DNA of 64,000 nucleotides. Origin: Candidatus Daviesbacteria bacterium. Its GTDB lineage: Bacteria; Patescibacteriota; Microgenomatia; Daviesbacterales; UBA10151. Positions 1,581-53,766 of the stretch are shown piece after piece (the first letter of the stretch is position 1; each line of letters opens with the position of its first letter). Under the pieces are notes generated by a model. The model was given only the letters and a program-made list of their open reading frames with translations, had not been told where the DNA came from and made no database searches. The translations under genes and the position numbers were made by a program. Location: NCBI GenBank assembly GCA_016176465.1, contig JACOXD010000011.1, forward strand, positions 12,318-76,317, given 5' to 3'.

Positions 1581-2370
1581 TTTTTGTCCTTTCCCTAGTC
1601 AGAAAATTGACAGCACTTTCAAATTTCCGATTGACTTCTTTGGTTGCTAGTGGAGGCTGAAAGGTGGAATTTATAAAGAGCAGAAATTGATAGACTAGTT
1701 TTGATGGGATACCACGAGCCAATAAGCTACAAGCAGCTCTGTAGAGATTAATATCTCTAGCACCCTCTGTTTGCCCTAGAATTGACTTCCAATCCAAATT
1801 AGTTGAACTTTTGTTTGTACCCTGAAGATCAATTATCCATTGAGGCATTTCATGAAATTCATTAACAAATGGTGGAGTAATCCAAGTATATTGATTACCA
1901 GAGGCATGAATTGATGGTGGTAGAATTACGTAACCGCCATCGGATTTTAGATCAATTCCATCTTTTATCCCATTCTGGCTATGAACATTAGGATTATACT
2001 GGTAGAAATGGTGTGATCCACCCCCACCAGTTTGTGACTTAACTGTATCTGTTAGGTTATCAGTAGTACCAGCATGTCTTGGGTCAACATCAATTACACT
2101 AACACCGGATAGTTTTCCTGTAACAAGGCCAATATTTGCCCAGGGCCACTTTGACCACCAATCGTTTATCTCATCAATAGTTGGTAATTTCTTTTGGTAT
2201 TCAAACCAAGACTCAAGACAAGGTTTTTTATTGGACGGGTTAATAGGGATAACTGACCAACCTTTTGAAAGATATTTTAAAGCAGCCTCTAGATTAGTCA
2301 TTCTGTGCTTCCTCCGCTGCAACAAGTACGTATCCCTTTCCCTCACAGCCCTGACAAACTTTCGCTCCAT
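1573..2370 (-). CDS. Bifunctional DNA primase/polymerase (AEP-superfamily Prim-Pol) N-terminal domain protein
   Basis: Motifs KGWSVIP, GLVTG, VIDVDPRHAG (hhDhD), GGGSHHFY (sxH), IDLKSDGGYVILPPSIHASGNQYTW typical of pfam Prim-Pol. Confidence 0.75.
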   Translation of the reverse strand: MERKFVRAVRERDTYLLQRRKHRMTNLEAALKYLSKGWSVIPINPSNKKPCLESWFEYQKKLPTIDEINDWWSKWPWANIGLVTGKLSGVSVIDVDPRHAGTTDNLTDTVKSQTGGGGSHHFYQYNPNVHSQNGIKDGIDLKSDGGYVILPPSIHASGNQYTWITPPFVNEFHEMPQWIIDLQGTNKSSTNLDWKSILGQTEGARDINLYRAACSLLARGIPSKLVYQFLLFINSTFQPPLATKEVNRKFESAVNFLTRERTKNG

Positions 2371-2515
2371 ATTTCAAAGTTCCAAAACCACGACAAACCG
2401 GACACTCAATCGGTAAGTGCTTAGCTTTTACTTTAATTACTCTGATTTTTGTTTCTTTTTGAAAGTCGTCCATGCCATCCAAACCCAATCCTTTGAGATC
2501 ATAATGGCACATCAA
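2294..2515 (-). CDS. Small DnaJ-type zinc-finger protein (CxxCxGxG x2)
   Basis: 73 aa; CPVCRGFG ... CQGCEGKG repeats. Confidence 0.4.
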   Translation of the reverse strand: MMCHYDLKGLGLDGMDDFQKETKIRVIKVKAKHLPIECPVCRGFGTLKYGAKVCQGCEGKGYVLVAAEEAQND

Positions 2516-2603
2516 TTAAGGCTTCTCAAAAGGATTGTGTGAGAATTTTGATCCTGAAACAGACCAAAAAAGTTTTTATTAAAGCCGTATAAAGTAATGG
2601 GGC

Positions 2604-2993
2604 TTAAGTAGGTTTAAGATGATAAAACCACTTTCTACCTCGCCTGAACTTATCTATACCCATGTTCATATTTCTTAAGGGTTCATAAGATTTTATTGTC
2701 TTTCTGGTATCAGTTACCAAACGTCCTGGTGCCTTGCTATTTGTCTCTTCTGCAATCCCATTAATATCAAGGGAACCTTTTATAATAAGCGCTTCAAGTA
2801 GTTTTTGTTGTTTTTCTGGAAAATGAAAATTCTTTATGATAGTTTTGAACAAGCTGGTACGCTGTCTTCTGGCACTCTTTGGGTATTTTGGTTCATCAAT
2901 TTCTCTGATTTCATGACCCTCATCAGCCAAAAAAAGCCGCATTGCTGCTTGGGCAATAGGGGGCATTGATAGTTTTTTCTTCCTTCCATCCAT
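2604..2993 (-). CDS. Hypothetical protein (mobile-element accessory); starts with MDGRKK shared 19-nt start sequence
   Basis: 129 aa ORF; first 19 nt identical to start of ORF at 5262. Confidence 0.35.
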   Translation of the reverse strand: MDGRKKKLSMPPIAQAAMRLFLADEGHEIREIDEPKYPKSARRQRTSLFKTIIKNFHFPEKQQKLLEALIIKGSLDINGIAEETNSKAPGRLVTDTRKTIKSYEPLRNMNMGIDKFRRGRKWFYHLKPT

Positions 2994-3217
2994 CCTTCAA
3001 TAATTCCTTATATTGCGTGCATGGATTAACAGATTTTTCCAAGCTCACTACGCAGGGTAATTATACCTTAAAAAGTAGTATAATTGAATCTGAGCAGGCG
3101 TGGAGATAATTTTACCCCTAAGGATATTAAATTTTAACTATTTTTCACTTATTCTGGAAGCTAATGTAAGATTGTAGTGGGGGTATACATTTTTGATATG
3201 TGCTGTTAACCAGCTTC

Positions 3218-4081
3218 CTAAGGCTGAGCCATAATTTGTATCTTTTCCCGTTCCAATGCACTTTTTTCAGCTTGCAGCAAGTCAATTCTGTATCTCATGT
3301 CAGCTATAGTGTTGTTAATCATTTGTGTACAGATGTAATTATCACACCCTTGATCAAATTGTTGAACTTGGGCCTGTATATTGTTCTGCCAAAAAGCAAT
3401 GTCCTTATTGATCTTATTAATTTTTCCATCAATCATTTTTAGAGCTTGTTCTTTTCCTGTATTGGGGCTGGGAGTTGGTGAGGGGGTGGGTGTTGGAGTA
3501 CTTGTGGGCTTTGGGGTAGGAGAGCTTGTTTTAGGAACTTGAACGGGTTTAGGTGTAGGAGATACGTCCTTCAAAATTATATCTGATGAATCAAGTTTCC
3601 ATTTTCCGTCTTCTAATACCAGCTTCCAGATTCCTTCAAAAGTTTTGGTTTGAACTTGTCCCTTTAAATCATCTTTAGCTTCTATCTGAACATAAACTAT
3701 CTTGTTTGATAAATCCTGGACATAGACATCTTTAGTTACTACATTTAATGTGTTTTTGTAACCACTGACAAAATTATCATAATTCTGGGCATAATTTTGA
3801 AAATTTTTACTTAATAGATTCCAGGCAGAATCAAATTCTTTGGAAGATATTGCGGCATAGAAATCTTTTACAGGTATTAATAGATCAGATTCAACCATGG
3901 GAACAGGAGTTGGAGAAGGTTCTTGTTGCTCGGTTAGATTTTTTATCTGTAACAATCCACCTTCTCCGCTTAGGTTTAATTTAACTAAACCTGTTTCCCT
4001 AACCACCGCTACTGTAAATAATCCTACTACAGCCCAGATTATAATTGGAATTACCACAAATCCTTTTTGAGAGTTTGTCAT
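3218..4081 (-). CDS. Membrane-anchored protein with Pro/Thr-rich linker and C-terminal coiled coil
   Basis: N-terminal TM helix, PTPKPTSTPTPTPSPTPSP linker, Q-rich coiled-coil tail. Confidence 0.45.
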   Translation of the reverse strand: MTNSQKGFVVIPIIIWAVVGLFTVAVVRETGLVKLNLSGEGGLLQIKNLTEQQEPSPTPVPMVESDLLIPVKDFYAAISSKEFDSAWNLLSKNFQNYAQNYDNFVSGYKNTLNVVTKDVYVQDLSNKIVYVQIEAKDDLKGQVQTKTFEGIWKLVLEDGKWKLDSSDIILKDVSPTPKPVQVPKTSSPTPKPTSTPTPTPSPTPSPNTGKEQALKMIDGKINKINKDIAFWQNNIQAQVQQFDQGCDNYICTQMINNTIADMRYRIDLLQAEKSALEREKIQIMAQP

Positions 4082-4126
4082 ATTATTTACTCCTACTTTA
4101 TGTTAACACACCCAAAACCACTACAT

Positions 4127-4309
4127 TCACGGCTGCCACCAAGGTTTTTGACATTCTTCCCAAGCATCAAAACTCGTAATTTTACCCGCCATACGATCAG
4201 CAAATTCCTTTTGGCAATGATTATAGTACACATCACTTCTCCAGAAGTAAAAAAATAGAAGCCCAAACCCTATTAAGGCAACAATTAATACTTTTTGAAA
4301 GGTTGTCAT
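4127..4309 (-). CDS. Small single-pass membrane peptide, MTTFQK family (2 Cys in tail)
   Basis: 60 aa; MTTFQKVLIVALIGFGLLFFYFW... paralogous to 4333-4505 and 4972-5235. Confidence 0.4.
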   Translation of the reverse strand: MTTFQKVLIVALIGFGLLFFYFWRSDVYYNHCQKEFADRMAGKITSFDAWEECQKPWWQP

Positions 4310-4332
4310 TGTTTAATATATATGTTTATTTT

Positions 4333-4505
4333 TTATCAGGAATGAATCCAAAACCTTGCTTCGAATATTGATCGCAAATAGTAAAACGTTGTGGCGTTTC
4401 TGCTGTAGCACAAGCATAAAATTCAAAACCTGTTTTAAAAAAATATAAAAAGAGGGCTCCAAAAACTATTAAAATTGAAATAAGCCATTTTTGAAAAGTT
4501 GTCAT
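4333..4505 (-). CDS. Small single-pass membrane peptide, MTTFQK family paralog (57 aa, not in ORF track)
   Basis: Manual translation of minus strand: MTTFQKWLISILIVFGALFLYFFKTGFEFYACATAETPQRFTICDQYSKQGFGFIPDKK. Confidence 0.35.
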
Positions 4506-4952
4506 TTATCCTTTTCTATCTTTCTTCCTAATATGATCAATAAATATACTAACTATGGCATACAAAAAACCCAGAGCCAAAAAAGCACCCATTAATATTA
4601 GCAGAGATCCTGAGATAGCTCCTCCTATTTTTACTAAAATAGGATTACCCATATACCAACCTAGAAACATGAAAAGTGCGATAATAGATAATATAACAAT
4701 GCCAGTACGCCACACGTTACCTACAACCCACCAAAGTGTCACTTTCAGTCCGTCTTGCTCAATTCTTTTATCAACTTTCTTCCATAGTTTTTGAACAAGT
4801 AGAACTCCAAAGAAAAATAAAAGGACCTTGAAAGTATTCGTGTAGGTTTCTTCTGCAATAAAAGATATAAAAATGATCAAACCCAAGAGGGTAATTATGA
4901 CTGTATTATTTGATTCATCGTTATTGCTGTAATCTCCAATTTTATGTATCAT
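4506..4952 (-). CDS. Multi-pass membrane protein (4 TM), hypothetical
   Basis: 148 aa hydrophobic ORF. Confidence 0.4.
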   Translation of the reverse strand: MIHKIGDYSNNDESNNTVIITLLGLIIFISFIAEETYTNTFKVLLFFFGVLLVQKLWKKVDKRIEQDGLKVTLWWVVGNVWRTGIVILSIIALFMFLGWYMGNPILVKIGGAISGSLLILMGAFLALGFLYAIVSIFIDHIRKKDRKG

Positions 4953-4971
4953 TATTTTCCCTCTAAAAGAT

Positions 4972-5262
4972 TTAGGTTAACCAGAAAAAAATCAAAATTA
5001 CCAGGAAGAAAATAATATAGATTAATGTTATTTTCTTATAAAATTTCTGTTCAGATTTTTGCTCTATAACTAAATCCCATAGACTTAAACCTGTATGAAT
5101 TCCAGTTTTTAAGTTGAATGTAGAAATAGTAACTAGAATTGCCAAAAAAAACATCACTGGCGCAACAGCTGCTATAACTAAAATTTGAATAGGAAAAAAA
5201 AGAATTGCAACAAGCAATTTTTGAAAAGCTGTCATACTATTTGTTTTCTTCCTTCCATCCAT
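4972..5262 (-). CDS. Small membrane protein, MTAFQK family paralog with MDGRKK N-extension
   Basis: ORF track 4972-5301; likely start at 5262 (ATGGATGGAAGGAAG) or 5235 (MTAFQK). Confidence 0.35.
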   Translation of the reverse strand: MDGRKKTNSMTAFQKLLVAILFFPIQILVIAAVAPVMFFLAILVTISTFNLKTGIHTGLSLWDLVIEQKSEQKFYKKITLIYIIFFLVILIFFWLT

Positions 5263-5449
5263 ACCAGTATGAAAGTAGGAAAATTCCAATGATAACCACA
5301 ATTACTACTACCTGTTGTGAGTCTCCTCTTTCAAGAACTGGGGAAAGAAGCTGAAGCCCAAGAATTAAAGTTATTACAAAAAGAACTGCATAGGCATATT
5401 TTCTAAATCTCTTTGGAAACAGCAATAAAAGCCAAAGAATAGGATTCAT
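5237..5449 (-). CDS. Small 2-TM membrane protein, hypothetical
   Basis: 70 aa hydrophobic ORF. Confidence 0.3.
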   Translation of the reverse strand: MNPILWLLLLFPKRFRKYAYAVLFVITLILGLQLLSPVLERGDSQQVVVIVVIIGIFLLSYWYGWKEENK

Positions 5450-5531
5450 GTTCGTTTAACCTCAATTCATGCGTAAAACTGGAATATATTTCCTGTTCAT
5501 ATTCTGGCATATATTCCAGAATTTAGTCAAT

Positions 5532-5741
5532 ATGACCAAATATAAAAAACTTGGAGAGAAAGTTAAGAAATTGAGGAAAGCTCGAGATTGGACGCAAGAA
5601 AAATTGGCAGAAGCTGCAAATGTTGACCCAAAGACAATTATAGAGTTAGAAGCTGGTAAAAGAGCAAACCCTACCCTCCAAACTCTTAATAAACTTGCAA
5701 GAGCCTTAAAAACTTCTCTTGAAGAGTTACTCTCTACCTAA
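5532..5741 (+). CDS. XRE-family helix-turn-helix transcriptional regulator
   Basis: LGEKVKKLRKARDWTQEKLAEAANVDPKTIIELEAGKRANPTLQTLNKLARAL; start moved to internal ATG 5532. Confidence 0.7.
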   Translation: MTKYKKLGEKVKKLRKARDWTQEKLAEAANVDPKTIIELEAGKRANPTLQTLNKLARALKTSLEELLST

Positions 5742-5976
5742 AAATCCTGAGATGGTACCAATTTGAAGAAATTTATCCAGCTGGGGTTTTAAGGACCCTT
5801 AGAATAAGGACAGGGGACGTGAGAACCTATATATATTTTCCCACAGTTCCTATCTATGCTGTAAGCACAAAGTCACACACCACCTTCTGTATCAGAGAAA
5901 CCCCTTTTCTTTCTACTTCCTGTAATGTTAGTTATCGGAACAAAAATTGTCTGTCCTCCTATCTTAGCCTCAGCGT

Positions 5977-6699
5977 TCAGTTAATGGTCGTATACTGAAC
6001 ACCTGTGGGCAAATAATCCTTATAAAATGGGTTGTCCAAGATATATTTTATGCTTGATTTACCCATTCCAAACTTATCCCCAATAGCTTGCAAGGTTAGC
6101 TTCTCTTTTATTCTGAAGTTAAAGATTGCTTTTACCTTTTCAAACTCATTCTTATCAATGACCAAATCACTCTTTTGTGCCATATTACGCTTCTTTAACT
6201 TAAAGCCAAGCGGTAACATATCAGGTGATCCAAGTCTTCTACCCTGCCTTGTAAGTTCCTGTAGTGCATCAATTGTACGTTCTGCTATCAGATCCCGCTC
6301 CATCTGTGCCATAGCTCCCATGACTGTAAGAAAAAACTTACCAGAAGCAGAACTTGTATCTATATTCTCGTTTAGACTTATAAATTGAATATCATTTTTT
6401 GCAAAAACATCTTCAATAAGATAGAGGAGGTCCCGAGTTTTACGGGTTAATCGGTCTAATTTGTAGCAAATAACACCATCTATTTTCTTTTCCTTGACTA
6501 AATTTATGATTTTTTGAAGTCCTGGTCTATTCATGGTCTTACCAGATTTACCCTCCTCAATAATCATTTCCACTAAATCCATGTCCTTTAAATCCGCATA
6601 AGCCATAATTTTATGCTCCTGATTATCTAAGCTAACACCATCACGGCTCTGCTCAAGAGTTGATACCCTGGTATATCCAATTACTCTAAGCTTTTTCAT
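5977..6699 (-). CDS. Serine recombinase (resolvase/invertase type, N-terminal catalytic domain)
   Basis: VIGYTRVSTLEQ ... DGVICYKLDRLTR ... catalytic-Ser resolvase motifs. Confidence 0.85.
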   Translation of the reverse strand: MKKLRVIGYTRVSTLEQSRDGVSLDNQEHKIMAYADLKDMDLVEMIIEEGKSGKTMNRPGLQKIINLVKEKKIDGVICYKLDRLTRKTRDLLYLIEDVFAKNDIQFISLNENIDTSSASGKFFLTVMGAMAQMERDLIAERTIDALQELTRQGRRLGSPDMLPLGFKLKKRNMAQKSDLVIDKNEFEKVKAIFNFRIKEKLTLQAIGDKFGMGKSSIKYILDNPFYKDYLPTGVQYTTIN

Positions 6700-7241
6700 T
6701 TTTCTTCCTCATCAACAATTTTTATCCTTCTGTATCCCTTAATTGGTTTGCCATATGCGTAATGCGTTGGTGAACCTAAGATAGATTGCGGACGTCCTTT
6801 GTATTCTGGTTGATCTAATTTCTTAGTGAAATGTTTAACATCCGCTGTGAGTTTTCTGATGTCCTCGTTACAGGTATATAGATTTATTGCTTGGTGTAAG
6901 AAAACCGCCATAGAACCGCCAGGTTGGGCAGTTAATACTGGAGATAGCTTTTCAATAGCCTCATTAAACTGTTGTACTAATTTCGATCTTTCTTCTGATT
7001 TATCCGGTAAAGGAAGTCCAGCATATACTAATAACTCGGTACCATTTATCCTGTACCATTTACCTCCAAATTTATTAGCCTGTAACCTTCCTGATTTGAT
7101 AGCTCGATGAATAGTGGCTACTGAAACATGAAGCAATTCAGCTGCTTCCTCTGCTGTATAGGTCGTGAAATGTAATATTGGATCGCTCATAATGTTTAAG
7201 TCTACATCAACGATGATGTATTTGTCAATATTAAGATTCAT
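6696..7241 (-). CDS. Excisionase-family HTH DNA-binding protein (Xis/MerR-like) with C-terminal extension
   Basis: TAEEAAELLHVSVATIHRAIKSGRLQANKFGGKWYRING; 4-bp overlap with recombinase start. Confidence 0.55.
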   Translation of the reverse strand: MNLNIDKYIIVDVDLNIMSDPILHFTTYTAEEAAELLHVSVATIHRAIKSGRLQANKFGGKWYRINGTELLVYAGLPLPDKSEERSKLVQQFNEAIEKLSPVLTAQPGGSMAVFLHQAINLYTCNEDIRKLTADVKHFTKKLDQPEYKGRPQSILGSPTHYAYGKPIKGYRRIKIVDEEEK

Positions 7242-8089: not shown

Positions 8090-8860
8090 AACACCTTCGA
8101 GGTGGTCTAGGCAGGCACCTCTTCTCTATTCTAAAACCAAGTGCTTGATCTTATCTAATTCTCTAGCATAGCTTACTTGATCCAAAACAAATTTTTTATA
8201 TTCATTTATAGATTTAAAAAAACCTAAAACCTCCTCAGAGCTTGTAATCTTCTCTGCTTTTGGTACCAAATACTCAAAGTAAGAAGACCATTGGTAGTTT
8301 TCCAAATCCTCCGTCTTAATTAAGTAGGAAGTTACTGGGTTTAGATGAATATATCTTGATAGATGAATAAACTGTTCATCAGAATCAACAAACACTGCCT
8401 TGAATAACCCCTGAAGAAGTGGACCCACTCTTTTATTTTTGGTGTTAAAGTATTTGGTATAAGAGTTAGAAAAGTTAGATATAAATTTAGATATACCATT
8501 TTCTTTCTTCTGCTTTAGTAGGAAGTGAAAATGGTTGGGCATTAAACAAAAAGCAATAATTTCTACTAATACATTCTCATCATCTAAGTTTTTCCATAAT
8601 TCATCTTTTTTGTCATTTGCGAGATCTAAAAACTTGGAAAATTTCAAAGGCAGACTTCCGTAGCGGTAAAACTTTAAAGTTTCTAAAGCTCTTGAATATT
8701 CCCTGCTTTTGGTAAAAATTGGACGCTTCTCTACACCTCGATTAAAAACATGATAGATGATCTGCTCATTTGCAAAAACAAACTTTCTATTTGTGGGCAT
8801 CTATTTAAAGTATGGACTAAAAAAGGACAGGTGTCAACCCAGACCACCTTTCAGGTGGTT
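8090..8860 (-). mobile_element. IS200/IS605-like element (HUH Y1 transposase flanked by CACCT-N3-AGGTG hairpins; TTGACA in left end)
   Basis: Hairpins at 8092-8104 (caccttcgaggtg) and 8844-8858 (ccacctttcaggtgg) flank tnpA-like ORF; same motif flanks second copy at 42.5 kb. Confidence 0.6.
8126..8800 (-). CDS. tnpA: IS200-like / REP-associated tyrosine (HUH, Y1) transposase
   Basis: HuH motif LMPNHFHFLL and catalytic Tyr in SRYIHLNPV; ~70% identical paralog at 42589-43233. Confidence 0.75.
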   Translation of the reverse strand: MPTNRKFVFANEQIIYHVFNRGVEKRPIFTKSREYSRALETLKFYRYGSLPLKFSKFLDLANDKKDELWKNLDDENVLVEIIAFCLMPNHFHFLLKQKKENGISKFISNFSNSYTKYFNTKNKRVGPLLQGLFKAVFVDSDEQFIHLSRYIHLNPVTSYLIKTEDLENYQWSSYFEYLVPKAEKITSSEEVLGFFKSINEYKKFVLDQVSYARELDKIKHLVLE

Positions 8861-12857: not shown

Positions 12858-14675
12858 ATGGGATTTATAAGAAAGAATATAATTTATCCTTCTCTCTTAA
12901 GTTTAATAATTATTTTTTTTGCAGTTCAATCTAAAGAAGTGAGAGCAGCAGACTGTGCCTTAAGTAATATCCGCTTTGCAAGCTCTTCAAATACAATTTA
13001 TCTGTCTGGTCCCATAACTTGCAGCCTTTCTCAACTTAAAGCTTTAAAATCCTCTCTACCTTTATATTTAGTAGATGCCAGTAGTAAAACATGGTTGCTT
13101 AAAGCTAATTTAAAACTTGAAGATGGGGCAACTTTAAACCTTTATGGAACAAGTATAGGAGGCGACGTTAATTATTTGCGTTTAAAAAGTAACAATAGTT
13201 CAAGTGCTAACTCCATAGTATGGATTAGAGCTGATTGGGGCAATATAAATATTAAAAATACTAAAATCACCTCTTGGGATGAAGCTAAAAAGTCTCCAGA
13301 TACTGAGTACGGTAAATATAAACGCTCATTTATTCATGTTAGATCATTTCTTGCATCTGATGGTATTACCCCTAAAGAGTCTCGAATGGATATTATTGAC
13401 AGTGAGGTTGGATATTTAGGCTACTACGCGGCTGAATCATATGGTCTTGCATGGAAAGTTTCGGGAAGTGGACCTAATTTATATGACAAGGTTAATGTTT
13501 ATGGGGATGTTATAAATTCTCACATTCACCATAATTACTTTGGTATGTACACATTTGGTGCAGATGCAATGAAGATACAAAATAATGAAGTAGACACTAA
13601 TGTAATGTACGGAATAGACCCTCACGATGATTCTGATAATTTATTAATTGAAGGAAACAGAACTCACCACAATGGTACTCATGGAATAATTTGTTCACAA
13701 AGGTGTAACAATTTAACGATCAGAAACAATAAATCCTACGAAAATAAGGGTACAGGTATAATGCTTCATCGCAACACTAATGATTCTTTGGTAGAAAACA
13801 ATGATCTTTTTGGTAATTCAGATAGTGGTATTGCTATTTTTGATAGTCACGAAAACATAATCCGAGGAAATATTTCCCATGATAATAAAAATGGAATTAG
13901 ATTTAGTGTAGGCAGTTCTGGAAATACAACTGAACTAAATGAGTTTAGCGAAAATGACGGTTATGGCTTATATTTTTATAAAGGGAGCGATGCCCCGACA
14001 AGTGGAACTGGAAGAATAACTGGCAACAAGTTTATAAAAAATAAAGTTATAGATAATGGGGACTACGCTGTTAAATTAAAAGAAGCAGACTTGAATATTT
14101 TTGAGCAAAATGAATTTAAGGGCAATTCAAGAGAGATTAACATTTCAGACAGCAATCAAAATATATTTTTAGGCAATTTATCAGACAGTTTTTACAATGC
14201 TAGCCTTAAAGCTAAAAATACTATTAAAGATACGGATTCAGCTTTAGTAAAAGTCTCAGATTCAGCAAGCAGCATGGAAGTTTTAAGCAGTAGCAATTTT
14301 ATTTTTCAAAATGACAAAAGTCTTCCTACTAGCGCTGAAAATTCTAAAACTTACATAAATTTAACTCGTGCGCTAACCTCTTCAACAGTTAACTTCAAAA
14401 GACTTAATTTTAAAGTAAAGCCCGCTGCCGATAAAGTTGACGTAACAGTATTAACTTGGGAAACATCAAATTCTTTTGGTAAAAAATGGAAGGAAAAAGC
14501 AACTTCTTCTGTTACAGTAGATTATGAAGTTTCAGATTTAAAACCTGATACTAAGGTAGATGTTTTAATAAATGGGAATGTTTTTAACTCCTTTACTTCT
14601 GATTCATCAGGAAAAATTAACTTCACATATGATGGTAATGTACTGGAGCGAACTTTTGAAGTAAAGGAATCTTAA
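12858..14675 (+). CDS. Secreted right-handed beta-helix protein, AlgG-like C5-epimerase paralog
   Basis: Signal peptide; YGIDPHDDSDN and RNNKSYENKGTGIMLH motifs; paralog of C-terminus of 8907-11762. Confidence 0.6.
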   Translation: MGFIRKNIIYPSLLSLIIIFFAVQSKEVRAADCALSNIRFASSSNTIYLSGPITCSLSQLKALKSSLPLYLVDASSKTWLLKANLKLEDGATLNLYGTSIGGDVNYLRLKSNNSSSANSIVWIRADWGNINIKNTKITSWDEAKKSPDTEYGKYKRSFIHVRSFLASDGITPKESRMDIIDSEVGYLGYYAAESYGLAWKVSGSGPNLYDKVNVYGDVINSHIHHNYFGMYTFGADAMKIQNNEVDTNVMYGIDPHDDSDNLLIEGNRTHHNGTHGIICSQRCNNLTIRNNKSYENKGTGIMLHRNTNDSLVENNDLFGNSDSGIAIFDSHENIIRGNISHDNKNGIRFSVGSSGNTTELNEFSENDGYGLYFYKGSDAPTSGTGRITGNKFIKNKVIDNGDYAVKLKEADLNIFEQNEFKGNSREINISDSNQNIFLGNLSDSFYNASLKAKNTIKDTDSALVKVSDSASSMEVLSSSNFIFQNDKSLPTSAENSKTYINLTRALTSSTVNFKRLNFKVKPAADKVDVTVLTWETSNSFGKKWKEKATSSVTVDYEVSDLKPDTKVDVLINGNVFNSFTSDSSGKINFTYDGNVLERTFEVKES

Positions 14676-15700
14676 AGTGAAACTTTAAAAAACTCCAGCG
14701 TTCTTTGTAAAAAAAGATCATGGTTATTAGATAAACCATGATCATCTCCAGGATACCTAAAAAATTCTACTTGTTTCCCCTTTTCCTGTAGTATTTTTAA
14801 AAGCTTTTCTGAAAACTCAATAGGTACTACCTGATCTTTCTCTCCATGGTGAATTTGGATGGGAGCAGTCACAAAATCTACATAATTAATAGCTGATACC
14901 TTATCCCAAAACAGTGGGTTTTCTTTAGGAGTACCAAATTCTTGGGGTAATCTTTGCCTACCAGAATCGCTAGCCCAGATGGGTTTAGTAAACCTCTCTG
15001 GCCAGGAGTAATATAAGTCATAAGCAGATGCTACTACTCCTGCAAATAACACTGCTGCTTTAATATCGCTAGATATAACTAGGGATCGCAGTGTTATTTG
15101 TCCACCCATTGAATGGCCCCACATACCTATTTTTTCTGGGTTGATCAGCGTTAAGGGTGAAGATTGGGTCTTTAACGCTAATTTCTTAATTGAGGCTACC
15201 AAGTTTAAAACATCGTATGTATAGTAAGGTGAATAATGGCCACTTTCATCTCTACCTTCACTATTATCATGACCCCTATAATCTGGCTTTATAACAACAA
15301 ATCCATTTTGTGCATAAAATTTAGCATCATCTTTGTAAGAATTTATTGTTGAATAAGATCTTGGACTGATAAATCCATGGTTTAAAATTATAATAGGAAA
15401 ACCTCCTTCCGGAACCTCTCTCGTGGGAACATTCATTAAAGCAAATAGCCTTAAGTTCTCTGAAGGATAAGCTATTATATAGCTTTTAAACCCATCATAA
15501 TCCCCTACTTTTTCTACTAAATCTATCGCTCCTCCCTCGTAATGCTTTTTTCTCATCTCTTCAATCATTAAAGGGTGAGAGTTAACAGGAAGATTAGAAG
15601 ATGAAGACTTTGAAGTATATAGGCTTTTGCCTATAATTAGGGCGACTAAAATAAATATAACTACTGCTCCCAAAATTAAAATTCCAGACAAGACTTTCAT
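14672..15700 (-). CDS. Alpha/beta hydrolase (prolyl oligopeptidase/esterase-like), membrane anchored
   Basis: GHSMGG nucleophile elbow, C-terminal Asp/His; N-terminal TM. Confidence 0.6.
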   Translation of the reverse strand: MKVLSGILILGAVVIFILVALIIGKSLYTSKSSSSNLPVNSHPLMIEEMRKKHYEGGAIDLVEKVGDYDGFKSYIIAYPSENLRLFALMNVPTREVPEGGFPIIILNHGFISPRSYSTINSYKDDAKFYAQNGFVVIKPDYRGHDNSEGRDESGHYSPYYTYDVLNLVASIKKLALKTQSSPLTLINPEKIGMWGHSMGGQITLRSLVISSDIKAAVLFAGVVASAYDLYYSWPERFTKPIWASDSGRQRLPQEFGTPKENPLFWDKVSAINYVDFVTAPIQIHHGEKDQVVPIEFSEKLLKILQEKGKQVEFFRYPGDDHGLSNNHDLFLQRTLEFFKVSL

Positions 15701-17907: not shown

Positions 17908-19278
17908 TTAGAGCTTAAATCTTCTGTCTGCTAAAAAAGGATTTGCTTTCCTATAAACTTTAACTGAGTTAAGTAAAACCCCTCTTTGCAAAGTAAACTC
18001 TCCAAACTTATCATTAATTTTATCTAAAGCTTTAGTTATAACTTCTTTTACTTTTACTTCTGGAAGAAGATTTAAGTTTTCAGGAGTTGTTGGTTTTAAA
18101 TTAGAAATAGAAATACCTATCATTCTTATAGCTTTCTCATCCCAAAGGCTCATGAATATCCCCCACCCTGTTTTAAATATTTCCAAACCGTCACTAGTAA
18201 AAGAAACTGTGCTTTGCGCTCCATCTCCTAAGAATCCAATCCCGGTTTGGAATTGAGGCGACAAACCGGGATTGTAGGTTTGTTTAAATGCATATCTAAA
18301 CCAAAGGGAAACAGTTTTACCTACTAGTTTTTTGGCTCGCATTCTTCTTGCAACTAATTCTGAAAGCTTAAGCAAGATTTGTTTAATTTCTTCATAAGAG
18401 TCTGCGTCATGATCTATTGTGTGTCTATGACCAATTGATTTTACTTCTTCTTTCTCATAAAAAGGGCTGACAGGAGAATCATCCAATCCCCTGCTCATGT
18501 TATATAAAGTTTGTCCATAACTTTTAAAAGAGGCTAATAAATACTCCAAGTTTACTCTTCTTAAATCAGAAAAATTAAAAATCCCCATATTATTTAACCT
18601 CCTTTTAATCCTAAACCCTATCCCACAAACCTCATTTAGCTCAATTTGGTCTAAAATTCTCATTGCTGCCTGCTCATCTGCTATTACCAGCAACCCATCG
18701 GGTTTGTATAAAGACCCAGCTAATTTAGCTAAAAATTTGTTATAAGAAATCCCAATAGAACATGTAATCCACTCCCCAATCTTAGCTCTTATTTGGGATT
18801 TAATATCTATAGCCATTTCAATAACGTCATTCCCGACCCGCTTCGCCGGAGCGAGAGCGAGGCGAGCCTGATCGGGAATCTGAATAGATCTCCCAATCGA
18901 GTTGGAAGATGACATTTTTAATTTGGGTGATGACTTCTTGGGCTGAGGCAGTTCTATAAATGCCTCATCGATAGAGAAAAGCTCTATATAGGGGGAATAG
19001 CTTTTTAGAATATTTAAAAATTTTTTAGTAGTAGATAAGTATTTATCAGAATCCCCTTTTACTAAAATTAATTGTGGACAAAGTTTTCTAGCTTCATATA
19101 AATTCATCCCAGTTTTTACCCCAAACTTTTTAGCCTCCACTGATGCAGCACCAACTACAGTCCTCTTCATTCTATCTCCACCAGTTACCCCAATAGGTTT
19201 ACCTCTAAGTCTTGGGTTAGCTTGCTGTTCAACCCTGGCAAAGTAGCTATTAAAATCTATATGTAATATTGTTCTCAT
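17908..19278 (-). CDS. dinB: DNA polymerase IV (Y-family, DinB) carrying two in-frame palindromic insertions
   Basis: ILHIDFNSYFARVEQ, SIDEAFIEL, YNKFLAKLAG; insertions at 18237-18274 and 18829-18879. Confidence 0.8.
   Translation of the reverse strand: MRTILHIDFNSYFARVEQQANPRLRGKPIGVTGGDRMKRTVVGAASVEAKKFGVKTGMNLYEARKLCPQLILVKGDSDKYLSTTKKFLNILKSYSPYIELFSIDEAFIELPQPKKSSPKLKMSSSNSIGRSIQIPDQARLALAPAKRVGNDVIEMAIDIKSQIRAKIGEWITCSIGISYNKFLAKLAGSLYKPDGLLVIADEQAAMRILDQIELNEVCGIGFRIKRRLNNMGIFNFSDLRRVNLEYLLASFKSYGQTLYNMSRGLDDSPVSPFYEKEEVKSIGHRHTIDHDADSYEEIKQILLKLSELVARRMRAKKLVGKTVSLWFRYAFKQTYNPGLSPQFQTGIGFLGDGAQSTVSFTSDGLEIFKTGWGIFMSLWDEKAIRMIGISISNLKPTTPENLNLLPEVKVKEVITKALDKINDKFGEFTLQRGVLLNSVKVYRKANPFLADRRFKL
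18237..18274. repeat. RPE-like palindromic element (perfect 13-bp stem CAATCCCGGTTTG/CAAACCGGGATTG) in frame within dinB
   Basis: Encodes YNPGLSPQFQTGIG; near-identical copies in uvrB and uvrC. Confidence 0.7.
18829..18879. repeat. GC-rich palindromic in-frame insertion in dinB (ATTCCCGA-35 nt-TCGGGAAT)
   Basis: ~70% GC segment in AT-rich gene; encodes extra loop IPDQARLALAPAKRVGNDV absent from canonical DinB. Confidence 0.5.
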
Positions 19279-24797: not shown

Positions 24798-24976
24798 GCA
24801 CCCTTAAGTGACGCCCCAGCTCTTGATGTGTCTAGTCTTCGACCCTGAGGACTTCGACGGTGAGCTCAGTCGAACCGCTCAGACCGAAGGGCTAACCCAC
24901 ACCGGGTGTGGGGTGTGTAGGAATTGTTAAATTACCTACTTGCATAAATAAAAAATATCCTGGTATACTCGGCTAT

Positions 24977-31468: not shown

Positions 31469-31617
31469 TGTGTAATTCTGGCTTTTAATTTCTAATACAT
31501 TATATCCACTTAGAATAATCCCTAGGTGTCGGCACATTCCACCTCCCAGGTGATTGTTCTTGTTTATGCAGGTGATTGTTCTTGTTTATGTAAATTAAGT
31601 AAGAGTTTAGCAAGGAA

Positions 31618-39305: not shown

Positions 39306-40619
39306 TTATATACCTACTCTGCTAAACATTTTTTTACTTCTTAACTTAAGGTGATAGTTAAGTGCAAAACGGTGGGATTCATCTCTGATTTTTTGCAATA
39401 AACGAAGAGACATTCTTCTTTTAGGGATCTTTACAATTTCTCCCTCAATTGGATATAACCTCTCCATTTTTTTTGCCAATCCAAATATAGGAATACTTAC
39501 TTCTCGTTTCTCTAAGATAGCGGCCACCCCTCTAACCTGACCTCTCCCTCCATCGATTATAATTAAATCTGGAAAGGGCCACTCAGGATGATTTAGTCTC
39601 CTCCTCATCATCTCAGATAGCATTGCTACATCATTAGGTTTTCCAGTAATTTTTATTTTAAACTTTCGATACTGCGATTTATCTATTTCTCCATTTGCTA
39701 AAACTACAAGTGATCCTGAAGCTTCCCCCCCTTGAATATTAGAAATATCATAACCTTCAATCCTCTTAGGCAAATTAGGCAATTTCAAATCCGTCATTAG
39801 CTGCTTTAATCCCAACTTATTTTGGTCTTCCAAAAAATTAGGATTATCTAAATACATTGAAATCTCAGTTGGTTGGGTAATATATTCAATCCCAGAAATT
39901 GTTTTCTTTAAAGTTTCTGCCTTTTCAAATTGCAAGTTTTTTGCAAGATCTTTCATTTCAACTTGCAACTCACTTAACAAAACTTCTTTTTCTCCACCTA
40001 TAAATTTAATAAAGCGGTTAATAATTTTTCGGTACTCTTTTGCATCTATCAAACCTATACAGGCTCCGGGACAAAGTCTTAGATGATAGTAAAAACATGG
40101 TCTAGCTTTCCAATCCCGGATTGGATTTGAATTGACAATCCGGGATTGGATGGTTATTTTCGATGGATTAGAACACCAAGGGAAGACTCTCCTTATTTTT
40201 TTTAAAGTTTGATTAACAGTACGGGATGAAGGAAAAGGACCAAAATATTTCAATGCATCGCTTAGTTCCTGCTTTCTGGAAGTTATTATCCTTGGGAACT
40301 TTTCCTTAGTGACTTTAATATAAAGATAATCTTTATTATCAGTTAAGCGGACGTTAAAGGTGGGCAAATTTTTTTTAATTAAATTGGCTTCCAAAATAAG
40401 TGCTTCTAATTCCGATTCCACCACAAAAAAAACAATGTCGGCAATACTTTCTACTAATTGGGCTGTTTTTAAAGATGATCTATCTCTAAAATAGGAGGCA
40501 ACCCTGGACTTTAAATCTACTGCTTTGCCCACATATAAAATGTCACCTTTTAAATCTTTAAATATGTAAACGCCACTTTTGTGAGGAATATCCTCTTTCG
40601 ATAAATTCTTGGGAATCAT
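39306..40619 (-). CDS. uvrC: Excinuclease ABC subunit C (short form lacking C-terminal HhH2) with in-frame palindromic insertion
   Basis: GIY-YIG SGVYIFKDLKGDILYVGKA, UVR domain, RDESHRFAL; 437 aa. Confidence 0.8.
   Translation of the reverse strand: MIPKNLSKEDIPHKSGVYIFKDLKGDILYVGKAVDLKSRVASYFRDRSSLKTAQLVESIADIVFFVVESELEALILEANLIKKNLPTFNVRLTDNKDYLYIKVTKEKFPRIITSRKQELSDALKYFGPFPSSRTVNQTLKKIRRVFPWCSNPSKITIQSRIVNSNPIRDWKARPCFYYHLRLCPGACIGLIDAKEYRKIINRFIKFIGGEKEVLLSELQVEMKDLAKNLQFEKAETLKKTISGIEYITQPTEISMYLDNPNFLEDQNKLGLKQLMTDLKLPNLPKRIEGYDISNIQGGEASGSLVVLANGEIDKSQYRKFKIKITGKPNDVAMLSEMMRRRLNHPEWPFPDLIIIDGGRGQVRGVAAILEKREVSIPIFGLAKKMERLYPIEGEIVKIPKRRMSLRLLQKIRDESHRFALNYHLKLRSKKMFSRVGI
40110..40149. 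repeat. RPE-like palindromic element (15-bp stem CCAATCCCGGATTGG/CCAATCCGGGATTGG) in frame within uvrC
   Basis: Encodes IQSRIVNSNPIRDW; read in a different frame from the dinB/uvrB copies. Confidence 0.7.
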
Positions 40620-42534: not shown

Positions 42535-43265
42535 TAGCTTGACACTAGCTTGACACCTGAAAGGTGTACGCATAAACTTTACTAGTATATGCCTGGTAGA
42601 CTTGTACCCCTAGTTAATGGAGAGTTTTATCATATTTATAATCGTGGTAGTGATAAGCGCAATATTTTTTTGCAAAATAGAGATTACATCAGATTTCAAA
42701 AAACTTTTTATTATTACCAATTTTTAGGTCCGAAGGTAAGATTTTCTAAATTTGCTAAATCTACCTTAAACCTCTTTAATCCAACACTAAATGAAAAATT
42801 AGTAGAAATTCTCTGCTTTTGTTTAATGCCTAATCATTTCCACCTACTTTTGGTTCAACAAAAAGAAAACGGCATTTCTTCCTTTATTAGTCAACTTGCT
42901 AATAGCTACACCAAGTACTTTAATACGAAATATTCTAGGGTAGGTGCATTATTTCAAGGAGTTTTTAAGTCTGTGCGGATTTCATCAGATGAGCAGCTAA
43001 TTCATATATCACGCTACATACATATTAACCCAATAGTATCTGGTTTAACAAAGAACCTCAAAAACTATAAGTGGTCATCATATTCTGAATACTTACGAAA
43101 TAGAGAAACTTTTTGCCAGATCAGCACTATTTTAAATCTTTTCCCTTCTTCCAAAAAATACTCTGAGTTTATTGAAAATCAAATTAGCTATGGAACCACT
43201 CTCGAAATGATTAAACATCAAAAAATTGATTAATTAAATTCGTGCGGACACCTGAAAGGTGCAAA
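42535..43265 (+). mobile_element. IS200/IS605-like element, second copy
   Basis: LE tagcttgaca-tagcttgacacctgaaaggtgtac (42535-42568) with TTGACA/TAAACT promoter; RE hairpin cacctgaaaggtg 43249-43261. Confidence 0.6.
42589..43233 (+). CDS. tnpA: IS200-like / REP-associated tyrosine (HUH, Y1) transposase
   Basis: LMPNHFHLLL and SRYIHINPI; paralog of 8126-8800. Confidence 0.75.
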   Translation: MPGRLVPLVNGEFYHIYNRGSDKRNIFLQNRDYIRFQKTFYYYQFLGPKVRFSKFAKSTLNLFNPTLNEKLVEILCFCLMPNHFHLLLVQQKENGISSFISQLANSYTKYFNTKYSRVGALFQGVFKSVRISSDEQLIHISRYIHINPIVSGLTKNLKNYKWSSYSEYLRNRETFCQISTILNLFPSSKKYSEFIENQISYGTTLEMIKHQKID

Positions 43266-49115: not shown

Positions 49116-51134
49116 TTAACTGCTTAATTCTCTTATTTGATCCCTTAATCTTGCTGCTGTTTCAAAATCTAAAAGTGCTGCAGCATCTCTCATCTGTTTT
49201 TCTAATTCTTTAATAATTCTTCCTCTCTCTTTTAATGGTATATCTTCAACTGTTAATACATCCTTCCCTAATTTTTCCTCAACTTTTTCTATTAACCTTT
49301 CCCTTAATGCTTTTTCTATCGAGCGTGGTTTAATTTTATGTTTTTTATTAAATTCTATTTGATAATTCCTTCTTCTTGAAACCTCATCTATTGCTCCTTG
49401 TATTGATTTAGTAATGGTGTCTGCATACATGATTACTGCTCCATCAACGTGTCTGGCAGCACGACCCATTGTTTGGATTAAAGATGTTTTTGACCTTAAA
49501 AATCCTTCTTTATCTGCATCCAAAATAATAACCAAAGATACTTCAGGTAAATCTAACCCTTCCCTTAAAAGATTAATTCCTACAATTACATCAAATTCCC
49601 CTAATCTTAAACTTTGTAAAATATCAGAACGCTCTAAAGTAGCAATATCTGAGTGTAAATAATTGACTCTAATCCCCTTTTCTTTAAGGTAATCAGTTAA
49701 ATCCTCAGCCATCCTTTTAGTTAAAGTGGTTATTAAAACTCTCTCACCTTTACTTACCCTTTTTTCTACTTCCTTAATTACATCTTCAATTTGCCCCTCT
49801 GTTTTTCTAACAGATACTTGCGGATCAACAATACCTGTGGGTCTTACTAATTGCTGGGCTACATTGTTTGGGCTTCCAATCCCGGTTTGGAACTGAGTTG
49901 ACAAACCGGGATTGTAGCCTGCAAGTGAAAACTCATATTCATCAGGAGTAGCAGAAACATAGACAGCTTGATTAACCCTCCTCATAAACTCCTCAAACTT
50001 TAAGGGCCTATTATCTAGTGCGCTAGGCAACCTAAAACCAAATTCAACTAAAGTCTCCTTCCTGGAGCGATCGCCGTTATACATTCCTCTAATTTGAGGG
50101 ATGGTAATGTGGGATTCATCAATAATTATTAAATAATCTTTAGGAAAAAAATCTAAAAGAGTATAGGGTGGTTCACCTGGATCTCTACCATCAAAATATC
50201 TTGAGTAATTCTCAATCCCATTACAAAAACCAAACTCCTTTATCATCTCCAAATCATAATAAGTGCGCTGTTCTAACCTTTGAGACTCAAGTAATTTTCC
50301 TTGAGATTTTAAATCTTTCAATCTTAACCTTAAATCATCTTCAATTTGAAAAGTTGCTGGTTTAATTAATTGTTGAGGTGTTATATAGTGTTTTGCAGGA
50401 TACAAAGTTAAAGTTTCTAGAGTAGGAATTGACTTGCCAGTAAGAGGATCCAAATGGGAAACTCTTTCAATTTTATCTTCCAAAAACTCAATCCTTAATG
50501 CAAAGTCAGAGTAAGCTGGGAAGATATCTAAAGTGTCTCCTTTTAATCTATACGTTCCTCTTTCAAAGTCAAAATCATTTCGGACGTAAAACATTTTATT
50601 AAGCATCTTTAAGATAGATTCCATTCCTGATTTAACTCCATTTTTTAGTTGCAGTATTGCCCCTCCATATTCCTTCGGTGAACCTAAGTTATAAATACAA
50701 GAAACAGAGGCTACAACTACAACATCAGACCTAGTCATTAAAGAAGTAGTTGTTGAGAGTCGCAGTTTTTCAATCTCCTCGTTAATGGATGCATCTTTTT
50801 CAATATAGGTATCAGATGAAGGAACATAAGCCTCAGGCTGGTAATAATCATAGTAAGAAACAAAATACTCAACGGCATTTTCAGGAAATAAGGACTTAAA
50901 TTCTTGTGCCAATTGCCCGGCTAATGTTTTATTATGAGAGATAACTAGTGTTGGTCTATTTACAGCTTGGATGACATTAGCCACAGTAAAAGTTTTACCA
51001 GAACCTGTTACACCAAGCAAAACTTGATGTTTCTCATTATCCTTAATCCCCCTTACTAATTTCTCAATAGCTTGGGGCTGATCACCAGTAGGCTTAAAAT
51101 CTGAAATTATTTTAAACTTAGACATAAAGTTCAT
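49116..51134 (-). CDS. uvrB: Excinuclease ABC subunit B with in-frame palindromic insertion
   Basis: [10 protein letters not shown], helicase motifs, C-terminal UVR domain; insertion at 49877-49914. Confidence 0.95.
49877..49914. repeat. RPE-like palindromic element (perfect 13-bp stem, same arms as the dinB copy) in frame within uvrB
   Basis: caatcccggtttgg-aactgagttga-caaaccgggattg encodes [14 protein letters not shown]. Confidence 0.7.
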
Positions 51135-51187: not shown

Positions 51188-51221
51188 TTAGCTTGACACC
51201 TGAAAGGTGTACTCGTAAATT
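51188..51221 (+). promoter_or_regulatory. Solo IS200-like left-end/REP-like hairpin carrying outward TTGACA-17-TAAATT promoter
   Basis: tagcttgacacctgaaaggtgtac identical to LE of the 42.5 kb IS copy; no transposase adjacent. Confidence 0.4.
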
Positions 51222-53148: not shown

Positions 53149-53766
53149 ATGCCAGTTACCCTTTATCGAAGACAGCGACAAATTTTAACTTTTATTAGAG
53201 ACTATATTGATAAATATGGTTATTCCCCTACTTTAGGGGAAATTGCAGAAGCCATGGGAGTTTCCTCGCTTGCTACAGTCCACGAGCATGTTCAAACTTT
53301 AGCAAGAAAAGGGGTAATAAAAAAGTTTGAAGGTTCTGTAAGAGGAATTGAAGTTTTGGATTACAATTACGGGAACGCTCTAAAAACAGTAGAACTCAAA
53401 GTTTTAGGTTTTATAGCTGCTGGACAACCAATTATGCCCTACACTGATCCAGATGCTACGATTGGAGTATCTTCCAGTTTGGTTAACCAGCATCGAAAAT
53501 CCTTTGTATTACAAGTAAAAGGAGATTCCATGATTGAAGATGGAATCTTAGATGGGGATTTTGTCATTATTGAGGAGCAAAATTTTGCTTATGATGGGGA
53601 TATTGTGGTAGCTCTTTTAGAAAATGGCTTGGCTACTTTAAAAAGATATTTCAAAGAAAAAGATAGAATCAGACTCGAGCCTGCTAATGCTACAATGGAA
53701 CCCATTTATTCAACAGATGTTCAAATCCAAGGAAGATGTGTGGGGGTAATCCGCAGATTTAGGTAA
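53149..53766 (+). CDS. lexA: LexA repressor (S24 peptidase)
   Basis: N-terminal wHTH; AAGQP cleavage site, GDSM Ser, TLKR Lys. Confidence 0.9.
   Translation: MPVTLYRRQRQILTFIRDYIDKYGYSPTLGEIAEAMGVSSLATVHEHVQTLARKGVIKKFEGSVRGIEVLDYNYGNALKTVELKVLGFIAAGQPIMPYTDPDATIGVSSSLVNQHRKSFVLQVKGDSMIEDGILDGDFVIIEEQNFAYDGDIVVALLENGLATLKRYFKEKDRIRLEPANATMEPIYSTDVQIQGRCVGVIRRFR

Follow-up and report, generated by a model that had tools for sequence, protein, structure and literature searches.

The window analysed here is a stretch of 64,000 nucleotides (nt) of DNA from Candidatus Daviesbacteria bacterium (contig JACOXD010000011.1), and it carries five DNA repair genes: dinB, which encodes a DinB-type polymerase (17908-19278), uvrC (39306-40619), uvrA, uvrB (49116-51134, minus strand) and lexA (53149-53766). 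A perfect palindrome lies in frame within uvrB at 49877-49914, where an earlier reading of the letters alone (the original prediction) had located it, and this palindrome, its host gene and its relatives elsewhere are the subject of the present analysis. The host gene is an intact open reading frame (ORF) of 672 codons with all UvrB domains. A protein annotated as UvrB in Candidatus Daviesbacteria shows 100% identity to its product, which also matches solved UvrB structures with E = 1e-249; the public annotation begins three codons downstream of the start of the longest ORF, giving 669 vs 672 amino acids (aa).

A palindromic insertion in uvrB

Read on the plus strand, the palindrome consists of a left arm, CAATCCCGGTTTG (49877-49889), a 12-nt spacer that constitutes the hairpin loop, GAACTGAGTTGA (49890-49901), and a right arm, CAAACCGGGATTG (49902-49914), each arm representing one putative repetitive extragenic palindromic (REP) unit. 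The right arm is followed directly by TAG, which creates a GTAG tag. The two arms are 100% complementary and lie 12 nt apart; they measure 13 nt and not 14, the additional g of the earlier description being unpaired, and the spacer length is likewise corrected, to 12 nt. Folded as RNA, the uvrB doublet reaches -27.5 kcal/mol (z = -5.6), and the three elements of this kind in the window range from -20.8 to -27.5 kcal/mol (z = -5.1 to -7.4).

Codon alignment with orthologues in which the site is empty (L069 and L149; relatives are cited by L numbers throughout) delimits an in-frame insertion of exactly 45 nt, or 15 codons, at 49872-49916 on the minus strand (sense strand TACAATCCCGGTTTGTCAACTCAGTTCCAAACCGGGATTGGAAGC). 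With a slash marking the junction, the empty site of L069 reads ...TTG GCT GGT/CCA AAC AAT GTG..., while the window uvrB reads ...CTT GCA GGC/TAC AAT CCC GGT TTG TCA... at its 5' junction and continues ACT CAG TTC CAA ACC GGG ATT GGA AGC/CCA AAC AAT GTA.... The insertion therefore encodes an in-frame peptide that canonical UvrB lacks, as had been proposed, with a length of 15 residues instead of the predicted 14. Alignment with solved UvrB structures opens a 17-residue gap at the insert, and relatives that are free of the palindrome are also without the peptide segment, so that the segment is not a conserved part of UvrB.

No convincing target-site duplication was found at the uvrB insertion, where comparison of GGC/TAC...AGC/CCA with the empty GGT/CCA yields at most a 2-nt GC coincidence. 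The insertion does not fit a transposable element of the miniature inverted-repeat kind (MITE), which would combine terminal inverted repeats with a target-site duplication, because no direct duplication flanks it. Nor does it fit an intrinsic terminator, since the element lies in the middle of the gene and is followed on the sense strand by GGAAGCCCAAAC, with no gene-end T-run. A search of the window with Rfam 15 at gathering thresholds returned five tRNAs only and no match for the palindromes.

The insert is located 10 residues past the SAT motif (helicase motif III) and just ahead of the strand ...QQLVRPTG that leads into domain 3, and thus where helicase domain 1 meets domain 3. The original placement, between helicase motif VI and the UVR domain, was mistaken: the insert directly follows motif III, and motif VI (QTMGRAARH) lies ~130 residues further downstream. 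In an AlphaFold model of UvrB built with 43 homologues, which is of moderate confidence (mean predicted local distance difference test score, pLDDT, of 70.9), residues 405-419 are coil with pLDDT < 50, between a helix (396-401) and a strand (422-424), and the encoded peptide is predicted to form a disordered surface loop. In the UvrB linker running from motif III to domain 3, no codons are variable other than those hit by the insertion.

An assembly or sequencing artefact might be suspected here, as assemblies can become chimeric at palindromes and the sequence comes from a metagenome-assembled genome (MAG). This suspicion carries next to no probability, as the insertion is in frame, has clean boundaries and recurs at one and the same codon in assemblies made independently from different samples (L148, L007 and L151). 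In two of these, L148 (a Logan run) and L007 (JAQUSJ01), the same element occupies the same uvrB codon. The palindrome in uvrB is real.

The UvrB site among relatives

The comparison set consisted of 120 UvrB homologues with 72-100% identity. In seventy of the 120, SLA(G) and N(V/I)A(E/Q)Q are separated by only 2-5 residues, and the other 50 carry inserts of 9-60 residues that differ greatly in sequence. Occupied and empty forms interleave in a neighbour-joining tree computed without the insert region, which implies many gains and/or losses. Of the inserts that were inspected at the DNA level, nearly all are palindromic, and at least six palindromic element classes occupy identical UvrB codons among the relatives. 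The element of the window is present in L148 (UvrB 80% identical) and L007. Arms of AAACCCGGTTTG and CAAACCGGGTTT occur in L151, and the element of L065, CACACACCCGGTGTG-12-CACACCGGGTGTGTG, has nearly the same spacer. A doublet of CACCTCCGAGGTG occupies the site in L067, a CACCCGGAGGGTG unit (a CACCC unit) with a TCAAGCTA flank is found in L150, and L068 carries CACCTTCCAGG-48-CCTGGAAGGTG. L152 and L153 contain two long CGTC-tagged palindromes, with folding energies of -44 and -73 kcal/mol.

A metagenome scan seeded with UvrB recovered mostly distant UvrBs and only two close relatives. The site is mostly empty in the distant proteins (53-64% identity), a few of which have non-palindromic low-complexity inserts there, and non-palindromic inserts are found at the same position in other phyla. 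Because the inserts are of many kinds, including non-palindromic ones in other phyla, the loop at the UvrB site is permissive and gathers insertions, which in Daviesbacteria are palindromic repeats.

Between the window and L148, the element is identical at 41 of 45 positions, as compared to 72.6% identity for the remainder of uvrB (p = 0.002) and 47% at third codon positions (p = 5e-10). The element is better conserved than its flanks and is therefore not evolving as a free loop. Master-copy turnover, template switching within the hairpin and structural selection would each account for this conservation of arms and element, and the data do not separate them. Arm covariation was rejected as decisive proof of function, since the pattern would look no different if it stemmed from template-switch correction or master-copy turnover.

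Two further arrangements were noted among these relatives. In two Daviesbacteria assemblies, uvrA is divided into two ORFs (L067, 12464-15260; L153, 13608-16678), for which a pseudogene, a frameshift error or another cause could be responsible, and the upstream part in L067 carries a second in-frame CACCTCCGAGGTG doublet, at 13814-13862. Intergenic clusters of CACCT(T/G)..AGGTG, two or three in a row, occur in L070 (3160-3218) and L153 (18849-18908), just downstream of uvrB or near uvrC, and resemble the REP arrays of classical systems that are of the bacterial interspersed mosaic element (BIME) type.

The repeat family and RAYT-type genes

Eight matches to the arm pattern, at up to two mismatches, were found in the window against 0.91 expected, and none of 100 shuffles reached this number. 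The eight matches represent three elements, with both strands counted, and there are exactly three doublet copies in the window, in dinB, uvrC and uvrB. The dinB copy (18237-18274, minus strand) has arms identical to those of the uvrB copy, as the original prediction had recognised, and is read in frame as YNPGLSPQFQTGIG within the little-finger domain. The uvrC copy (40109-40150, minus strand) has 15-nt arms, TCCAATCCCGGATTG and CAATCCGGGATTGGA, in which a T is replaced by A and compensated on the opposite arm; it is read in the other frame, as IQSRIVNSNPIRDWKA, between FPWCSN and RPCFYYH. The dinB site is also occupied in L043 and the uvrC site in L003, L004, L047 and L060. No target motif common to the insertion points in uvrB and uvrC was recognised.

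Each arm is a 13-nt self-palindromic unit, CAAWCC(C/G)GGWTTG, a pattern also written CAAWCCSGGWTTG, and the doublet has short asymmetric outer flanks (consensus cgaaCCTA-...-GGAAAGCTA). The family consensus spans ~54 nt, (c/t)gaaCCTA-CAATCCCGGWTTG-12 nt-CAAWCCGGGATTG-GAAAGCTA, and the spacer of several copies has the opposite orientation with respect to the outer flanks. A scan for ATCCCGGNTTG-N10-14-CAANCCGGGAT in one genome per GTDB species yielded 64 loci, of which ~26 are true members, all from Daviesbacteria or Microgenomates MAGs, among which are counted three that bear a Gammaproteobacteria label but have Daviesbacteria-like genes; the other ~38 were rejected as chance terminator-like hairpins in other phyla. 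Family members recur at orthologous sites in uvrC (five genomes), tsaB (four), uvrB (two) and dinB (two), while def and prmC each carry a copy in one genome, and short ORFs or intergenic DNA account for ~ten copies. A single intergenic unit in the window, CACACCGGGTGTG (24898-24910), is a variant that corresponds to the arms of the L065 uvrB element.

The element is translated as YNPGLS.Q.Q(T/S)GIG in uvrB, dinB, tsaB and prmC and as QSR(F/I)V...P(N/I)RDWK in uvrC and def. Because two reading frames are used, it is the nucleotide sequence that is conserved and not the peptide. This bears directly on the proposal that UvrB has an adaptive module in the 15-residue peptide, under selection as protein, for which one might cite the open frame and the retention of the insert in several lineages. 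Such a module is highly improbable in view of the translation of the same DNA in another frame in uvrC and def, the disorder predicted for the insert, the lack of an insert in most relatives, and the mutually unrelated inserts found at the site. The uvrB element is best viewed as a tolerated passenger and not as a functional UvrB module.

The intragenic copies, ~15 in number, all lie in sense orientation. Read this way, the element has no stop codon in any of the three frames; its reverse carries TAG in two of three, and these reverse-strand TAGs suffice to explain the bias. As evidence, the orientation was set aside as uninformative, since only ~six independent sites are involved (0.75^6 = 0.18).

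Two genes of the window encode putative REP-associated tyrosine transposases (RAYTs). The product of RAYT2 (42589-43233, plus strand), a Y1/HUH transposase-like protein of 214 aa, is encoded between the transglutaminase/uvrC genes and uvrA and thus inside the uvrC-uvrA-uvrB cluster, and an orthologue (214 aa, weak Y1_Tnp match) is present at the same position in L149, a relative with an empty UvrB site. RAYT2 matches Pfam Y1_Tnp (PF01797; E = 1.4e-10, 41.8 bits, above the cutoff of 23) and the NCBIfam model for REP-associated tyrosine transposases (REP_Tyr_transpos, NF047646; E = 5.4e-16). Its HUH (pnHfH) and tyrosine (rYIhINP; YIxINP) motifs align with those of E. coli TnpA-REP (PDB 4er8). 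In a Foldseek search of the PDB, an AlphaFold (AF2) model of RAYT2 (pLDDT 85.9) found its best match in 4er8_A (E = 6.4e-7, template modelling (TM) score 0.65), titled as a REP associated tyrosine transposase bound to a REP hairpin, with the IS608 and ISDra2 transposases next. More than 7,900 RAYT2 homologues were present in the protein collection, and the named ones were called 'transposase', from Daviesbacteria, Gottesmanbacteria or Patescibacteria. RAYT1 (8126-8800, minus strand, 224 aa) is only 52% identical to RAYT2, so the two paralogues are not copies of one insertion sequence (IS), and no tnpB gene lies beside either of them. A mobile-element-like block (1573-7241) directly adjoins RAYT1, with a Prim-Pol/PriCT primase (1573-2370), a serine resolvase (5977-6699) and an HTH_17 excisionase-like protein (6696-7241).

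On either side of both RAYT1 and RAYT2 stands a self-palindromic unit of 13 nt, CACCT-NNN-AGGTG; the window contains six such units, compared with 0.75 expected. RAYT2 lies between two CACCTGAAAGGTG units, one upstream (42554-42566) and one downstream (43249-43261), the outer flanks of the latter being inverted with respect to those of the former. The units flanking RAYT1 are CACCTTCGAGGTG (8092-8104) and CACCTTTCAGGTG (8845-8857). One solitary CACCT-type unit is found at 31540 and another, CACCTGAAAGGTG (51197-51209), lies 63 nt upstream of the uvrB start, with flanks (AGCTTGA...TAC) almost the same as those around the 42554 unit upstream of RAYT2. From this position the unit could affect uvrB transcription or the 5' end of its mRNA.

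The uvrB-type unit is itself associated with RAYT genes in other genomes. In two MAGs with 5-7 copies of the uvrB-type element (L032 and L062), a full doublet of this type lies 20 nt upstream of the start of a RAYT homologue, and a single unit (CAATCCGGGATTG or CAAACCGGGTTTG) lies just past its stop codon, with the same outer flanks as the doublet. These homologues are 50% identical to RAYT2 and 71% identical to each other. The doublet and singlet around them imply that the arms of the uvrB palindrome are two copies of a REP-like unit, arranged in the architecture of REPINs (REP doublets forming hairpins). Three RAYT subfamilies can be distinguished, each with its own unit type, namely {RAYT1, L028}, {RAYT2, L149} and {L032, L062}, and the CACCT-type unit of the window RAYTs is the one that forms the doublet at the L067 UvrB site. 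The presence or absence of elements, and their replacement among close relatives, point only indirectly to a possible mobilisation by RAYTs.

These associations were also weighed against a selfish palindrome independent of RAYTs, either a MITE-like element or one resembling the Rickettsia palindromic elements (RPEs) that is moved by another transposase, or else a product of template switching in situ. The very short length of the element and the gathering of many different palindromes at one site would suit such an origin, as would the lack of a cognate RAYT in the window and of a target-site duplication, but the last of these features is itself typical of Y1 (IS200/IS605-type) transposition. 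Furthermore, near-identical 45-nt sequences at the unrelated dinB, uvrB and tsaB sites cannot arise in situ, and both the flanking of RAYTs by doublet and single unit in two genomes and the correspondence of subfamily with unit type speak against such an origin. An origin independent of RAYTs is thus considered improbable.

Comparison with known systems and clustering in repair genes

The original prediction offered no identity for the element. The uvrB palindrome is probably a REP doublet, similar to a REPIN, of a Daviesbacteria REP/RAYT system, which is tolerated in frame in a permissive loop of UvrB and belongs to a RAYT-associated repeat family specific to Candidatus Daviesbacteria and related Microgenomates. 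TnpA-REP and the IS200/IS605 enzymes recognise a hairpin in single-stranded DNA and leave no target duplication. By analogy, the Daviesbacteria RAYT would bind the hairpin in single-stranded DNA and would excise and move, or copy, the doublet without target duplication, as proposed for REPINs. Copies that enter genes would survive only in frame and within a permissive loop, and in a genome that is ~90% coding, survival restricted to tolerant loops would give rise to recurrent insertion sites. The perfect complementarity of the arms might be kept by master-copy turnover and/or by template-switch correction within the palindrome.

Several features are shared with the REP/REPIN-RAYT systems known from E. 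coli (TnpA-REP, 4ER8), from Pseudomonas (REPINs) and as 'REPtrons'. In each case a palindromic unit is repeated and forms inverted doublets that fold into a larger hairpin, units flank a non-duplicated Y1/HUH gene, each transposase subfamily has its own unit, no target-site duplication is made, and, as a partial likeness, GTAG adjoins many copies. Other features weigh against assigning the uvrB palindrome to such a system. The 13-nt self-palindromic units and 38-54-nt doublets are much shorter than classical REPs and REPINs, and copy number is low: with the strict pattern, a species-representative genome yields 1-7. About half of the doublets (~15 of 29, and all three in the window) are intragenic and in frame instead of extragenic. 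GTAG adjoins the hairpin in the uvrB copy (GGGATTGTAGCC, plus strand) and in 14 of 29 copies, is absent from the uvrC copy, and lies 3' of the hairpin on the GTAG strand, unlike the arrangement in E. coli REPs. The RAYTs are 214-224 aa in length and come from the Candidate Phyla Radiation (CPR), and RAYT2, at 58.8 bits, falls below the curated NF047646 cutoff of 80, relative to which it is a divergent subfamily. Lastly, no RAYT in the 64-kb window is flanked by the uvrB-type unit, as both carry the CACCT-type unit; any mobilisation in this genome is thus putative, and the three copies could be relics.

The IS200/IS605 family (IS608 and ISDra2) also has a Y1 HUH transposase, subterminal hairpins and insertion without duplication, and supplies the next-best folds for RAYT2; in Daviesbacteria, in contrast, the transposase gene lies outside the mobile unit and has no adjacent tnpB. 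Like the element in uvrB, RPEs are palindromic repeats that lie in frame in conserved protein genes, at surface-exposed or permissive positions, and leave the host protein intact. RPE-1 is reportedly about 100-150 bp long and confined to Rickettsia. The uvrB insertion differs in its length of 45 nt and in its CPR lineage, a comparison made by description. RPEs are not known to have a transposase partner. In-frame palindromic repeats within proteins, both as Rickettsia RPEs and as other repeats, have been described (PMC3184786).

All three doublets of the window lie in repair genes, and dinB, uvrC, uvrA and uvrB together make up 11.9% of its length (p ~1.7e-3 by length). A published bias, still unexplained, agrees with this clustering in uvrB, uvrC and dinB: intragenic REPs were found to be numerous in excinuclease ABC and error-prone polymerase genes, with examples in excinuclease ABC subunits, in uvrA genes with two REP inserts, in R. 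conorii uvrB and in error-prone DnaE2 (Di Nocera et al., 2013; PMC3733652). The same study of GTAG- and CGTC-tagged intragenic REPs reported different REPs at about the same recB site in two Xanthomonas species (PMC3733652), which resembles the situation in UvrB, although phylum, unit sequence and host-gene site are different here and one codon position of UvrB, in a single candidate lineage, is host to at least six classes of element. The clustering may owe something to relaxed constraint on non-essential repair proteins and to the location of RAYT2 inside the uvrC-uvrA-uvrB cluster, and a real coupling of the element to DNA damage is possible as well.

The clustering could also be explained if the hairpins were a functional cis-element, in the form of RNA or of single-stranded DNA, and co-regulated the damage genes uvrB, uvrC and dinB, for example as a site for an RNase or an RNA-binding protein or as a damage-responsive structure. 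The location of all three window copies in repair genes would be accounted for in this way, and the presence of lexA indicates that an SOS system exists, yet the window uvrA has no copy, and the family extends to tsaB, def, prmC, short ORFs and intergenic DNA and to positions beside RAYT genes. Retention of complementary arms through compensated changes across lineages, and conservation of the element above that of its flanks, would be expected of a regulatory structure, but compensated arms can arise without selection through template-switch correction. The single orientation common to the copies relative to transcription, which could be added in its favour, is expected from the stop codons and is not significant by independent sites. 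Moreover, 70 of the 120 close UvrBs have no insert and the rest have unrelated palindromes or decayed remnants. A shared cis-element is therefore judged improbable. The lexA gene lies ~2 kb from uvrB in the window and next to or near uvrB in L065, L148, L149 and L150. A search for classical LexA boxes (CTGT-N8-ACAG and GAAC-N4-GTTC) upstream of uvrB, dinB, uvrA and lexA gave nothing convincing, and the reading of the element as an SOS operator was dropped on this ground.

A broader proposal, which is considered improbable, is that single-strand transposition of the RAYT type is coupled, mechanistically or selectively, to the DNA-damage response, such that uvrA, uvrB, uvrC and dinB would be preferred sites of landing or retention at defined codons and the in-frame hairpins would modulate expression. 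If this coupling were true, the Daviesbacteria uvrB linker, with its six or more unrelated classes of palindromic element, together with a RAYT in the uvrC-uvrA-uvrB cluster, would make the repair-gene bias described in 2013 amenable to study.

Intragenic REPs in repair genes are already known; what is notable here is the new lineage, the very short self-palindromic units and the mostly intragenic habit. No published description of REP/RAYT systems or of in-frame palindromes in the CPR was found in the literature searched. Assignment of the uvrB palindrome to a REP/RAYT system would extend these systems to the CPR and would mean that in its gene-dense genomes the repeats survive largely within genes, in frame and in permissive loops of proteins. 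It would also mean that the repair-gene bias of intragenic REPs has been reproduced independently, in a far-removed lineage whose repeat sequences are unrelated. One linker position of UvrB has been colonised repeatedly, by at least six element classes. For annotation, such segments as YNPGLSxQxQTGIG, QSRFVxxxPNRDWK, HLRGE...HLGG or VIPANAGIQ...RLRGND in CPR proteins are translated repeats and not motifs, and the length variation seen in UvrB, UvrC and DinB of these MAGs is not due to assembly errors.

Two minor observations were made in the course of these comparisons. An unrelated perfect 13-nt inverted repeat, CAAATAACACTGC and GCAGTGTTATTTG with a 32-nt spacer, is present at 15043-15100 in the window, within a gene for a peptidase S9 / alpha-beta hydrolase (14672-15700). 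Three MAGs titled 'uncultured Gammaproteobacteria' carry uvrB, uvrC, tsaB and RAYT genes of the Daviesbacteria type: CAYWKL01 (L032, L041, L052, L058, L060 and L150), CAYLXC01 (L004, L029, L034, L048 and L062) and CAYHYM01 (L005). A UvrB from a 'Gammaproteobacteria' MAG (P0003) is 78% identical to that of the window, and the label on these three MAGs is probably wrong.

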